A stretch of 64,000 bases of DNA, taken from assembly GCA_964016885.1 (NCBI GenBank), contig OZ024743.1, positions 110,360,001-110,424,000 on the forward strand. The letters are read 5' to 3'. This stretch comes from Eledone cirrhosa (Eukaryota). Positions 52,081 through 61,794 of the stretch are shown here, in pieces (the stretch's first letter is position 1; each line of letters begins with the position of its first letter). The translations under genes and the position numbers were made by a program. The notes below the pieces were generated by a model, which saw nothing but the letters and a program-made list of their open reading frames with translations, did no database searches and was not told the origin of the DNA.

Positions 52081-52480
52081 AATGGTAATCAAAATTGTCT
52101 TTTACTACTGCTGTGATTCTCTCTCTCTCACTTTCTCTCTATATATCTATCTATCTATTTATCTCTCTGTATATATATATATATATATATATATATATAT
52201 ATATATATATATATTTCAGAGCACCAATCCTAATTTATATATACATATATATATATATATATATATATATATATGTAGATAAATCTACCAAGAGTTTACG
52301 GTAGTGTCCAATCCGTATGAAGAACTCAATGTATTCCGGATATCATGGAAAGAAGAGATGTAATGAAAAATCACTTTCGGTGAAAGATAAACGGTATACA
52401 GAGTCAAGATAAAATATTAAACAAATAATGAATAAAACAATGAAACAGTTCCTTATATTAAACAAAAAAAGTTCATTATT

Positions 52481-52554
52481 CCTTACGGGGTCGATAAAAT
52501 AAAGTACCAGTAATGCACTGGGTAATTGGTGGCCTTGTGCCAAAAGTAGAAACA
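52481..52554 (+). mobile_element. 5'-truncated SINE in the left arm only; TSD ATTATT
   Basis: TSD at 52475-52480 and 52555-52560; the empty site is seen in the right arm at about 61710-61720. Confidence 0.92.
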
Positions 52555-52702
52555 ATTATTTAACGATCGTTTCTAGGATATATATGTGTTAGAATTGGCA
52601 TGCATATTCAACAGATCTATGTATAAAATTATACAAAATTATACAAACTATCAAGATTAAATATACATACCAACACATATATACGCCGTCTTCAGAAATA
52701 AT
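52555..52702 (-). ncRNA. Type-I hammerhead motif with long stem II (left-arm copy)
   Basis: Reverse complement of 61568-61715. Confidence 0.72.
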
Positions 52703-53299
52703 GAAATATATTTATTGATAATAACAACAATTCAAAATTTCAGGTCCGTTTGGGAACAAAATTGACCAATGAAAATACAAAAGGTTTTATGCAGTTCGGT
52801 GTGTGTATATACATGTAACTACCCCGTACTCATATTTATACAAAAATGTATGCTCAACATGCATACGTTTGCCAAAAAGATGCATGCAAATACAAAATTT
52901 CAAGGTTAATGTCTCTGTAAGTTTATAATGCACAGATAAGATGCGTATAGACACATAAATATGAAATAAGTCTATACACATATTCTCATACTCACACATA
53001 TCCGTACAATCACACACACGCGCGCGTATATGCATAAACATACACATAATTACGAACATACACACACACACATACCCCCACACACATATATATATATGTG
53101 GATATAATATTATCATAAGCACATGGATATTAATTCACTCACATAAACACTGCCACACACATTTAGATCAAGATACAGAAATTAGGTGGGAGGGGGGGAG
53201 AGGTCAGTATTCAACGGTTTGGGCAGACTGCTTATTTATAGATGTATCTATAAACTAAGAAATAAAAAATAAAAATTAAAAAGGAAAGAAAAGAAAAAG

Positions 53300-55130
53300 A
53301 AAAAAGAGAAAAAAGAAATATATCAAGAAAATATATATATATATATACACATATATATACACACACATATATATATATATATATATATATATATATATAT
53401 ATACATATACACACATCTACACTTAGAACATACATACACACACATATATAAACATATACATATACACACATACACACATATACACACATACATATAAATA
53501 TATATATATATATATATATACACACATATATACACATATAATCACACATACATATATAGACACACATATATATACACGTACACGCACATATACATACACA
53601 TACATACTTATATACATACAGATATACACATACATACCTATATATACACACAAATACATACAGACATACATACATACATACACACAAATACTTACGCATC
53701 CATATATCGGTATATACATACAAACACCACTACACTCTCACACAACTCAGACATACAAAGAAAAAGGTATATACCTATACACATATACATATACAAATAG
53801 AGATACATATACATATATATATATATATATATATATACACATATATATATATATATATATATATATATATACACATACACATATACACACATACATATAC
53901 ATACACATACATACATGTACACACACATACATATACATACATACACACATACACACATACATATATAGTCATACACACACATACACCTACACGAACATAC
54001 ACATACACATATATAAAGATATATATACACACACACACATACACACACACACATATATATAAAAAATAAAGATATATATATATATATATATATATACATA
54101 TATATATATATATATATATATACATATATATACATACACATATACATAGACATACATGTACATACATACACATACATACATACATATACACACATATATA
54201 TATATATATATATATATATACACACATAGACACACATATATACATACACACACATATATACTCATACATAGACAAAGATATATATTCATACATACATACG
54301 CACTTACATATACTCATATATACAAATACATACGCATCCATATATGCGTATATACATACAAACACCACTACACTCTCACACAACTCAGACATACAAAGAA
54401 AAAGGTATATACATATACATATATACACACATTAATAGAGATACATATACACATATATATATATATATATATACACATACATTTATATATATACACCCAC
54501 ACACACATACAACCATAAACACACATACAAACACACACATACACACATATATACATACATATATATACACACACACAAAAAACACACATACACATATATA
54601 TTTTTACACATATATATACACATATATATACATATACACACCCTCACATATACACACATACACATAAGTTATATTATAATAATAAATAATATATATATAT
54701 ATATATATATATATATACACATACGAATATAGACATATATACACACATAGATATACATATATATATACATATACACACACACACACACACACTCACATAT
54801 ATATGTGCGCACACGCACACATATACACATACACACATATACACATAAACACATACATGTGCATACATGTACATACACACATATACCCACATAGATACGA
54901 AGATAGACATATATATAGAGAGACATACATATATATACACACATATATATACACATACATACATACACACACATATATATATATATATATATATATATAC
55001 ACATACACATACACGCCCACACACATATACACATATACACATATATATATATATATATACACATACACATATATATATACATGCATATATACACATATAT
55101 ATATACACACACACATATATATATACACAC
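53300..55130. repeat. Complex (TA/CA) satellite inside the PLE 3' region, with an internal ~640 bp duplication; mirrored at about 59135-60940
   Basis: catacaaacaccactacactctcacacaactcagacatacaaagaaaaagg at about 53716 and 54355. Confidence 0.85.
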
Positions 55131-58013: not shown

Positions 58014-61000
58014 GTAATTTAATTTATAGATTAATTTTAATTTATTTAAACCTTTTATTAAAATTCCTTTACAGATAAAATATAACAAAATATCGTGTAT
58101 CCAATGACAGAGAAATAATCTTTAGTATTATAGACCTAATTAATATACATTTTAGAAATATATTTATAATTTGGTTTTAAATTTAGTCAACCTAAAAATT
58201 TAATTTAATTGGCTTAAAATTAGTATCCTTATACAGACGGATTGCAGAGTGTCATGTAATCATACAATGGGATGTGTTTTGGATGTATACCTAGTTAATA
58301 TATTCTTTGCAATTTTTGAAAAAATATGTATATTTATGTATGTATATGTATGTGTATGTGTGTGTGTATATGTGTATATATATATATATATATATGTGTA
58401 TATATATATATATATATATATATATATATATATATATATATATATATATATATGTGTATGTATATGTATATGTATATGTATTAATTTTGATTTCTATTTG
58501 CATATAATTATATTCTGCTATTGATAAAATACAATATCTGTTTTATTTATTATATACCTAATTAACATATACTATAGAAATTAATATATAATTTTTAATT
58601 TAGTTAACCTATAATTTATATTCTACTACCGATGTAATACTTTATTTGTTTTTTCCCTATTACTAAATTCATTTCCTAATATTGATACCATAACGTTAAT
58701 AACTTTAATTTAGTTATACTATAATTAATACTCTACTACTATTTAACTTCAAAATTCTGCTTCAAATATTATAAACCTAACTAATTTACACCTTAGAAAT
58801 CAATATGTTAACTATCTTTAGTTTAGTTAACATATAATTAATGGTATACTTATTTTGAAATGCATAAATTTTGCCTTATTTCTTGTATTTCCTAACACTG
58901 AAACTATGTAAAAACATACATTGGATCCAGATACAGATAATATTCTATGTTTCTTGAAACATATATTTACTATAATCCCCTTCTCCAACCCCCCCCCCCT
59001 TTCCCCCATACTATTATCATCTGTGTTTGTAGGCGTGTATGTATGAATATATATGTAGGTAGGTGTATATATGTTTGGGTATTTATATCTGAATATAAAA
59101 ATACACATATGCGCATGCAAATAAAAATGTAAGATTGTGTGTATATATATGTGTGTGTGTATATATATATGTGTATATATGCATGTATATATATATGTGT
59201 ATGTGTATATATATATATATATATGTGTATATGTGTATATGTGTGTGGGCGTGTATGTGTATGTGTATATATATATATATATATATATGTGTGTATGTAT
59301 GTATGTGTATATATATGTGTGTATATATATGTATGTCTCTCTATATATATGTCTATCTTCGTATCTATGTGGGTATATGTGTGTATGTACATGTATGCAC
59401 ATGTATGTGTTTATGTGTATATGTGTGTATGTGTATATGTGTGCGTGTGCGCACATATATATGTGAGTGTGTGTGTGTGTGTGTGTATATGTATATATAT
59501 ATGTATATCTATGTGTGTATATATGTCTATATTCGTATGTGTATATATATATATATATATATATATATTATTTATTATTATAATATAACTTATGTGTATG
59601 TGTGTATATGTGAGGGTGTGTATATGTATATATATGTGTATATATATGTGTAAAAATATATATGTGTATGTGTGTTTTTTGTGTGTGTGTATATATATGT
59701 ATGTATATATGTGTGTATGTGTGTGTTTGTATGTGTGTTTATGGTTGTATGTGTGTGTGGGTGTATATATATAAATGTATGTGTATATATATATATATAT
59801 ATGTGTGTATATGTATCTCTATTAATGTGTGTATATATGTATATGTATATACCTTTTTCTTTGTATGTCTGAGTTGTGTGAGAGTGTAGTGGTGTTTGTA
59901 TGTATATACGCATATATGGATGCGTATGTATTTGTATATATGAGTATATGTAAGTGCGTATGTATGTATGAATATATATCTTTGTCTATGTATGAGTATA
60001 TATGTGTGTGTATGTATGTTGTGTGTGTATGTATGTATGTGTCTATGTGTGTATATATATATATATATATATATGTGTGTATATGTATGTATGTATGTGT
60101 ATGTATGTACATGTATGTCTATGTATATGTGTATGTATATATATGTATATATATATATATATATATATATATATATATATATATATATATATATATATAT
60201 ATCTTTATTTTTTATATATATGTGTGTGTGTGTATGTGTGTGTGTGTATATATATCTTTATATATGTGTATGTGTATGTTCGTGTAGGTGTATGTGTGTG
60301 TATGACTATATATGTATGTGTGTATGTGTGTATGTATGTATATGTATGTGTGTGTACATGTATGTATGTGTATGTATATGTATGTGTGTATATGTGTATG
60401 TGTATATATATATATATATATATATGTGTATATATATATATATATATGTATATGTATCTCTATCTGTATATGTATATGTGTATAGGTATATACCTTTTTC
60501 TTTGTATGTCTGAGTTGTGTGATAGTGTAGTGGTGTTTGTATGTATATACCGATATATGGATGCGTAAGTATTTGTGTGTATGTATGTATGTATGTCTGT
60601 ATGTATTTGTGTGTATATATAGGTATGTATGTGTATATCTGTATGTATATAAGTATGTATGTGTATGTATATGTGCGTGTACGTGTATATATATGTGTGT
60701 CTATATATGTATGTGTGATTATGTGTGTATATATGTGTGTATATATATATATATATATATATTTATATGTATGTGTGTATATGTGTGTATGTGTGTATAT
60801 GTATATGTTTATATATGTGTGTGTATGTATGTTCTAAGTGTAGATGTGTGTATATGTATATATATATATATATATATATATATATATATATATATATATA
60901 TATGTGTGTGTGTATATATATGTGTATATATATATATATTTTCTTGATATATTTCTTTTTTCTCTTTTTTCTTTTTCTTTTCTTTCCTTTTTAATTTTTA

Positions 61001-61567
61001 TTTTTTATTTCTTAGTTTATAGATACATCTAAAAATAAGCAGTCTGCCCAAACCGTTGAATACTGACCTCTCCCCCCCTCCCACCTAATTTCTGTATCTT
61101 GATATAAATGTGTGTGGCAGTGTTTATGTGAGTGAATTAATATCCATGTGCTTATGATAATATTATATCCACATATATATATATGTGTGTGGGGGTATGT
61201 GTGTGTGTGTATGTTCGTAATTATGTGTATGTTTATGCATATACGCGCGCGTGTGTGTGATTGTACGGATATGTGTGAGTATGAGAATATGTGTATACAC
61301 TTATTTCATATTTATGTGTCTATACGCATCTTATCTGTGCATTATAAACTTACAGAGACATTAACCTTGAAATTTTGTATTTGCATGCATCTTTTTGGCA
61401 AACGTATGCATGGTGAGCATACATTTTTGTATAAATATGAGTACGGGGTAGTTACATGTATATACACACACCGAACTGCATAAAACCTTTTGTATTTTCA
61501 TTGGTCAATTTTGTTCCCAAACGGACCTGAAATTTTGAATTGTTGTTATTATCAATAAATATATTTC

Positions 61568-61715
61568 ATTATTTCTGAAGACGGCGTATATATGTGATGG
61601 TATGTATATTTAATCTTGATAGTTTGTATAATTTTGTATAATTTTATACATAGATCTGTTGAATATGCATGCCAATTCTAACACATATATATCCTAGAAA
61701 CGATCGTTAAATAAT
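61568..61715 (+). ncRNA. Type-I hammerhead motif with a ~115 nt stem II region
   Basis: attattt CTGAAGA cggcgtatatatgtg..cacatatatatccta GAAAC GATC GTT aaataat; 7-bp stem I and palindromic GATC loop. Confidence 0.75.
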
Positions 61716-61794
61716 GAACTTTTTTTGTTTAATATAAGGAACTGTTTCATTGTTTTATTCATTATTTGTTTAATATTTTATATATATATATATA

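Follow-up and report, generated by a model that had tools for sequence, protein, structure and literature searches.

We describe a two-armed insertion of a Penelope-like retroelement in a 64,000-nucleotide stretch of the Eledone cirrhosa genome (assembly GCA_964016885.1, contig OZ024743.1, positions 110,360,001 to 110,424,000; hereafter the window, numbered from its first letter). The insertion, which is real, young and dead, occupies 52275-61781 and sits in a (TA)n tract, with 30 alternating TA bases at its left flank and 22 at its right. It consists of two element copies joined head to head. An earlier note, made from the letters of the window, had recognized the fold-back and put it at 9.4 kb; the whole unit measures 9,507 bp. 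The long arm (52275-58015, minus strand) is a 5′-truncated element covering positions 1086-6662 of the family unit plus a tail, the short arm (58014-61781, plus strand) covers unit positions 2877-6662 and abuts (TA)n with a tailless end, and the two meet at 58014-58015 in a 2-nucleotide (nt) overlap common to both. Alignment of 52409-56224 with 58014-61781 gives 3,703 matches and 13 substitutions (0.35%), in line with the nearly identical arms of ~3.8 kb noted before; the arms differ further by 12 small indels, almost all of which fall within microsatellite sequence, and by one 80-bp insertion found only on the left. A 1,789-bp stretch that only the long arm has (56225-58013, minus strand) forms an unpaired spacer. 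The left end reaches 134 bp beyond the point at which the right end stops, and this tail (52275-52408, minus strand), which the earlier note overlooked, corresponds to the first bases of the next tandem unit. As both flanks are pure TA, a target duplication cannot be read at this locus.

The long arm retains part of a reverse transcriptase (RT)-GIY-YIG frame, open on the minus strand from 58013 to its stop at 56370. It matches residues 267-813 of the 813-residue family protein at 99.5%; its description as an open frame truncated at 58013 stands, and the inverted arm begins 146 bp beyond its stop codon (~145 in the earlier estimate). The locus keeps 547 of 813 residues; the N-terminal third is gone, and with it RWR, DKT and FDID (residue 251), the first aspartate motif of the RT, whose loss had also been overlooked. 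Because the 5′ truncation removed this third and the first RT aspartate, the copy cannot encode a working enzyme. An intact protein of 813 amino acids, with the motifs FDID, YRDD and NIVY..YIG, is encoded by a tandem array at another site of the genome. It combines RT with a C-terminal GIY-YIG endonuclease within one open reading frame (ORF), as in endonuclease-bearing Penelope-like elements, and carries RWR at position 37 (R for K), DKT at 115, CxCX5C at 673, CxxC at 771 and CxH at 799, with no further cysteine pair. A Pfam profile search of the truncated frame gave no significant match; relatives at E<=1e-30 number 496. Residues 470-680 form an Asn/Thr/Lys-rich linker (17.6% Asn) that is ~100 residues longer than in most relatives; rotifer Penelopes have been described with long Asn-rich inserts.

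Near each outer end lies a ribozyme motif, as had been reported. By inspection and folding (z -4.8), the right copy (61565-61718, plus strand) is a Type I hammerhead motif with a recognizable core, a 10-bp stem I, a long stem II of ~120 nt and a stem III that is short and palindromic; the predicted cut falls after 61708. The left copy (52472-52705, minus strand) is interrupted in stem I, which is reduced to 7 bp by the 80-bp insertion. That insertion (52475-52554, plus strand) is a later arrival in the left arm; flanked by a 6-bp duplication, it is a 3′ piece of a short interspersed repeat that is abundant (120 matches in 69 fetched sequences). An Rfam scan returned no hammerhead among 141 matches at E<=1, only microsatellite-driven microRNA models; the core and cut triplet agree with those tabulated for the Hydra clade in the PMC8557442 supplement. 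The pseudo-long terminal repeat (pseudo-LTR; 61568-61781, plus strand) corresponds to unit 6451-6662, and its first base is the genome-wide hot spot of arm starts. Alternating purine-pyrimidine tracts make up 44% of the 4,095-bp 3′ region, close to the earlier reading of ~4.1 kb that is roughly half satellite. The TA/CA satellite block (53330-55130, minus strand; mirror copy at ~59130-60930) is a fixed part of the family and, as noted before, is carried along with the element; long copies bring ~1.9 kb of such satellite to new TA targets, which matters for annotation.

One tailed and one tailless end across the family

The family is young and very abundant in the 3.0-Gb chromosome-scale assembly that we searched. 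Its unit of 6,662 bp has an ATG at +290, a stop at 2731, a 3.9-kb 3′ region with the satellite block, and the hammerhead at 6448-6601. All 40 scored candidates found with an ORF probe match at ~100%, and exact-pattern counts, which are lower bounds, give at least 5,095 tailed and at least 3,915 tailless ends joined to TA. Alternating TA opens each of the 32 flank pairs examined, and from copy to copy the tailed and the tailless end each fall at exactly the same base and overlap the TA target by 2-3 nt. Tandem units with pseudo-LTRs, 5′ truncation and inverted copies all occur, and arrays reach five whole tandem units with an inverted partner. In one 41.5-kb insertion (C6:49.525-49.566 Mb, L021-L025), five whole tandem units are accompanied by an inverted 5.5-kb arm, and units 3 and 5 have four private changes in common, a pattern of possible relevance to circular or multimeric templates.

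This architecture is known. Endonuclease-bearing Penelope-like insertions comprise a pseudo-LTR, an adjoining inverted 5′-truncated copy and an optional tail at one, either end (PMC8557442, PMC3846280), and the elements described there have in common with ours the head-to-head truncated copy, partial tandems, arrays, a microsatellite target, the one-end tail at either end and a hammerhead in the pseudo-LTR. The tail is 134 bp here versus 30-40 in those accounts, and arms here extend up to 6 kb and more. Judged from motifs and by eye, the family likely belongs to the Hydra clade. Its protein is visibly alignable with printed Hydra proteins, and it resembles Hydra-1_Obim and Penelope-13_HM (PMC8557442) in DKT, the CxCX5C linker, CxxC, CxH, the absence of CCHH, an RWK-like motif (RWR here), (TA)n insertion, and the type of hammerhead core and cut triplet. 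Its unit of 6,662 bp contrasts with 1,080-3,045 bp for the Hydra-clade families listed in that source, where a length "generally" below 3 kb is descriptive and not diagnostic; unlike those families, it has a 3.9-kb 3′ region with a satellite block, a hammerhead stem II of ~120 nt and an Asn-rich linker longer by ~100 residues. The locus is a dead copy of a known architecture, unusually large, in a family that is new and unusually long.

Two-armed loci were sampled with the ORF probe (20 loci), with a 3′-end probe (13), from the first-listed ends on C1 below 62 Mb (39, a sample not selected by length), farther along C1 (11 picked loci) and as short palindromes (14). The ORF-probe sample omits three of the 40 best matches (C2:215.29, C1:359.54 and C1:129.20 Mb), and C1:84.08 Mb comes from the end lists only. 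The tallies exclude C3:347.24 Mb (clipped end), C15:38.49 Mb (partner end untied), C2:36.27 Mb (nested), L186, L188, L214, all single-arm loci and, of 36 junction rows, the 4 that parsed badly; for L238 a tailed-arm length of ~3 kb was used.

Of the 98 two-armed loci with both ends in view, 97 pair a single tailed end with a single tailless one. The end lists alone lead to the same result: on C1:1-93 Mb, 46 of 48 divergent pairs are mixed versus 49% expected (p 2e-12). The tail/tail pair among the 48 proved to be two separate mixed loci, and we read the tailless/tailless pair as a nested insertion. The tail shows no bias to the long arm. Among 83 scored loci it lies on the short arm in 42, on the long arm in 18 (the window locus included) and on one of two equal arms in 23; the corresponding numbers in the 39 first-listed loci are 17, 5 and 17. 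Ten short arms in the 83 loci are tail only and have no sequence in common with the partner arm. Head-to-head shape and one-sided tail are already in print; the one-tail count and the lack of bias to the long arm are new. Both arms measure at least 1 kb in 32 of 83 loci (9 of the 39 not selected by length), and the supplement of PMC8557442 lists for Penelope-13_HM an inverted copy of 966 nt that has a hammerhead on each strand; the earlier statement that such inverted repeats are usually a few hundred bp exaggerates how rare long ones are. About 22 of 66 first-listed loci extend into the TA/CA satellite.

Other measurements point to one insertion event and one template for each two-armed unit. 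Where the TA tract is interrupted near an end and can be read, a 12-16 nt duplication encloses the whole unit at 5 of 7 loci; among mismatched pairs the figure is 7 of 317 (permutation p 5e-5). Outer-arm divergence within 19 loci is 0.08-0.51%, versus medians of 0.67-1.8% to other loci, and in 20 short palindromes the arms diverge by 0.55% within a locus versus 3.45% to others. Differences between the arms of a locus are almost all private, and private changes cannot tell snap-back of one complementary DNA (cDNA) from two cDNAs. The 32 parsed inner junctions have overlaps of 0-4 nt in 21 cases and inserts in 11, several of them copied from nearby sequence. Locally copied inserts are typical of polymerase theta end-joining.

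Arm ends and the likely transcript start

About half of all arms end at the 5′ edge of the hammerhead. The 39 first-listed loci have 78 arms, of which 37 begin within unit 6433-6468; in 15 of these loci both arms do so, giving 560-bp palindromes. The peak is A6451, within the first strand of the hammerhead, in a context that we take to resemble an initiator motif. A base other than the genomic C precedes 6451 at 1,730 sites genome-wide; read-through copies have this C in 133 of 136 counts, in which loci are partly repeated. Several arms open with an extra G, as do both arms in loci L179 and L195, and an extra G at the start is seen for capped RNA of LINE-1 (L1, long interspersed element 1; PMC11702581). 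From this pattern, unit 6451 is the likely transcription start. The likely start sites of the two arms point outward, and a hairpin RNA would therefore need read-through from outside.

Most arms run past the predicted cut at 6591/6592, and the template would therefore be mostly uncut. We considered arrest at the hammerhead cut in two settings. For short palindromes of the 7.9-kb family in the window, the stop falls in stem II and not at the cut. In the main family, 36 symmetric junctions lie near the cut versus 19, 12 and 0 in three control windows; this cluster is minor beside the 1,730 arms at the 5′ edge and indistinguishable from stalling at the fold. Further minor clusters of arm starts lie inside the hammerhead fold at 6540-6543 and 6597-6598 and at ~77-112 of the tail, and most tail-only arms end 25-60 nt into the tail. 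Folding of the tail region (z -1.4) gave no support for a strong structure linking the two start sites.

Routes to a head-to-head pair

How Penelope-like elements make inverted copies and one-sided tails is stated to be open in PMC8557442 and PMC11167929. The observations to be accounted for are truncated copies joined head to head, a common haplotype within each pair, ends 134 nt apart, joins to (TA)n, and target duplications of 12-16 bp where readable. We infer that each arm probably arose from a first-strand synthesis of its own, with a staggered cut in (TA)n supplying its two ends as primers; in the genomic data, the one-tail rule, the tail position, the target duplications, the common haplotype, the inner junctions and the many loci with both arms stopping at the same base point this way. 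The element protein, probably as two copies, would bind the RNA at the tail region and cut both target strands. In one complex, one cDNA would be started at each of two sites, one per DNA end, most simply from the same RNA molecule, with the later enzyme displacing or following the first. Each cDNA would end independently, often at the RNA 5′ end, the hammerhead 5′ edge at unit 6451. Host end-joining would then probably link the two cDNA 3′ ends, either through an overlap of 0-4 nt or through short inserts copied from a template, followed by fill-in. The shorter cDNA would set the arm length and the difference between the two the spacer; arms of 3.8 kb would result because the 3′ region is 3.9 kb and the cDNAs are long.

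We lean, with some reserve, toward a wider account in which integration of such Penelope-like elements is a double first-strand synthesis, with one protein pair, two cDNAs, fixed RNA sites and host joining. It would yield the tail, the inverted pseudo-LTR, palindromes of 200-560 bp that resemble miniature inverted-repeat transposable elements (MITEs), and kilobase fold-backs, and would include a capped start at the hammerhead 5′ edge and a ribozyme that is mostly uncut. If arms do arise from two cDNAs, the two strands of one target would be expected to use different start sites.

An in vitro precedent exists. A Poseidon-clade protein, studied in vitro for Poseidon of Anolis carolinensis, cuts and extends both strands of an AT-rich target, is predicted to dimerise, and uses two internal RNA start sites that bracket the tail; hammerhead cleavage is not needed (PMC11167929). 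Poseidon belongs to a different clade, and its hammerhead overlaps the start codon, which lies 290 nt plus 60 nt downstream of the hammerhead in our family. The LINE-1 literature offers a second parallel, since twin priming also keeps the target duplication and leaves inner-junction microhomology, both of which we observe, and uses the second target end to prime a second cDNA, as would be the case here (PMC11702581). The arms of our loci duplicate the same RNA stretch, so the process would be similar to twin priming but not of the L1 form: both starts are fixed 134 nt apart, and a stretch copied twice gives an inverted duplication. In L1 twin priming, the internal site to which the second primer anneals varies, and two parts that do not overlap form an inversion. 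A literature search that reached few subscription papers found no two-cDNA model for Penelope-like elements and no description of this 6,662-bp-unit family.

Several points weigh against two primed cDNAs. The support in the main family is genomic throughout, and 41 of 83 loci, including that in the window, also fit snap-back. A common arm haplotype is equally expected from snap-back, gene conversion or two RNAs of the same source. PMC11167929 detected no difference in start site between the two strands, and no inverted-pair model appears in the accessible portion of that paper. The extra G as a sign of a cap is weak (29 of 100 versus 17 of 110, p 0.02; with C removed 17 of 91, p 0.13; in a further count 3 of 28, p 0.05; an automatic walk gave 2 of 10). 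About 23 of 66 first-listed loci are single-armed (~13 tailed, ~10 tailless), and the second cDNA would therefore not always be kept. Finally, the exception to the one-tail rule, at C1:30.69-30.71 Mb (L206/L207/L284), has two tailless ends. These sit in an inverted duplication of larger extent, where 2.7 kb of other DNA lies to either side and the right end has a tailed piece; flanking DNA was possibly copied on both arms. In L284:5876-8600 and L207:1822-4849 the arms both run into the same 2.7-kb non-element DNA, 99.5% alike.

For head-to-head Penelope copies, PMC8557442 and PMC3846280 propose not two primed cDNAs but self-priming, on an antisense RNA, or endonuclease resolution, in which the endonuclease trims a palindromic intermediate of free DNA and leaves the tail at either end. 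The tail could then land on either arm, as it does, and the frequency of equal-start palindromes (23 of 83) is accommodated. Against it, tail-only arms have no sequence in common with their partners; both ends overlap (TA)n by 2-3 nt, as priming predicts; arms end at the likely sense transcription start; and the start sites found in vitro lie on sense RNA (PMC11167929). We consider this route unlikely, though the strongest of the alternatives.

The earlier note favoured snap-back, in which a single cDNA halts, folds on itself and is copied back for kilobases. Snap-back accounts for the common haplotype of the arms, the short junction overlaps and, at the window locus, a short arm that is a subset of the long arm; junctions of this kind, with sense and antisense template copies joined at the 5′ end as here, are reported for R2 insertions (PMC11371274). 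A fold-back arm cannot contain what the first cDNA lacks, however, and the family counts on this ground rule out plain snap-back as a general route, since the second arm fails to be a subset of the first in the 42 of 83 loci with the tail on the shorter arm and ten arms are tail only. The best natural fold-back (hammerhead stem I in a tailed arm from 6451, with a partner of 58-75 nt) is found in 0 of 83 loci, two perfect palindromes are either loopless or centred on 2 nt, and a base-fixed second end joined to (TA)n is left unexplained. In the R2 cases described in PMC11371274 the antisense part contains a subset of the cDNA and may end at any point, whereas the second arm here has its own fixed, target-joined end and often has sequence that its partner lacks. 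At the window locus, where the tail is on the long arm, the subset relation formally holds and snap-back is formally possible, with no special support. As the source of these pairs it seems improbable to us.

Slightly less credible still is that each end was supplied by its own RNA-protein particle, both particles coming from one active source, or by one of two successive insertions. Single-arm copies of both end types do occur, and RNAs from the same source would have a common haplotype; yet an independent choice of start predicts that half of pairs are equal-ended, against 1 of 98 observed, and one duplication flanks the whole unit. An assembly artefact from fold-back chimeric reads is very hard to credit: the arms are 99.6% alike, but they differ by 13 substitutions, by indels and by an insertion with its own duplication, their ends and flanks differ, and 97 other loci obey one biological rule with unique junctions. 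Contigs from 4 runs compared with 57400-58320 included none bridging 58013/58014 among 32 of 1,136 pieces, a blank that is uninformative in a family of such high copy number. A DNA transposon with fixed terminal inverted repeats, as the earlier note had considered, is rejected, since the two ends of a unit differ and the junction is particular to each locus.

Related elements and other repeats in the window

The earlier note saw the same architecture elsewhere in the window. At 9250-13366 an older related element (66-76% amino acid identity in conserved parts) is a head-to-head pair whose arms meet near 10741-10746; its short left arm has the tail, and its right arm has deletions and no hammerhead. 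The short palindromes at 7858-8060 and 23412-23643, the former among the 7-kb and 200-bp cases that were likewise borne out, belong to another hammerhead family, have variable centres and score in Rfam, below threshold, like a microRNA hairpin. A search with 7925-8060 that skipped common words brought up nothing, and no coding parent of this family turned up. At least 40 copies like that at 7858-8060 exist, and an 82-bp tail lies on one side in all 30 that were fetched with a probe of that very shape; their many different centres indicate that they were likely made anew many times. For annotation, short palindromes of this genome that look like MITEs or microRNA hairpins would be made anew at each insertion. 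The recurrence near 62 kb stands only in part: at 61796-62832 a further hammerhead repeat of ~650 bp forms a head-to-head pair whose right end is lost, and the pair has a (TA)n tract in common with the right end of the main element.

A solo tailless pseudo-LTR of an older subfamily (63242-63440), with a different cut triplet, starts at the hammerhead 5′ edge and lies between TA tracts. A fragment of a more distant related ORF, from the endonuclease part (~35% amino acid identity), is present at 21854-22553. Two LINE-like copies at 28005-33538 and 38990-44848, 86-88% alike and in opposite orientation, are bounded by (AAT)n and are not Penelope-like.

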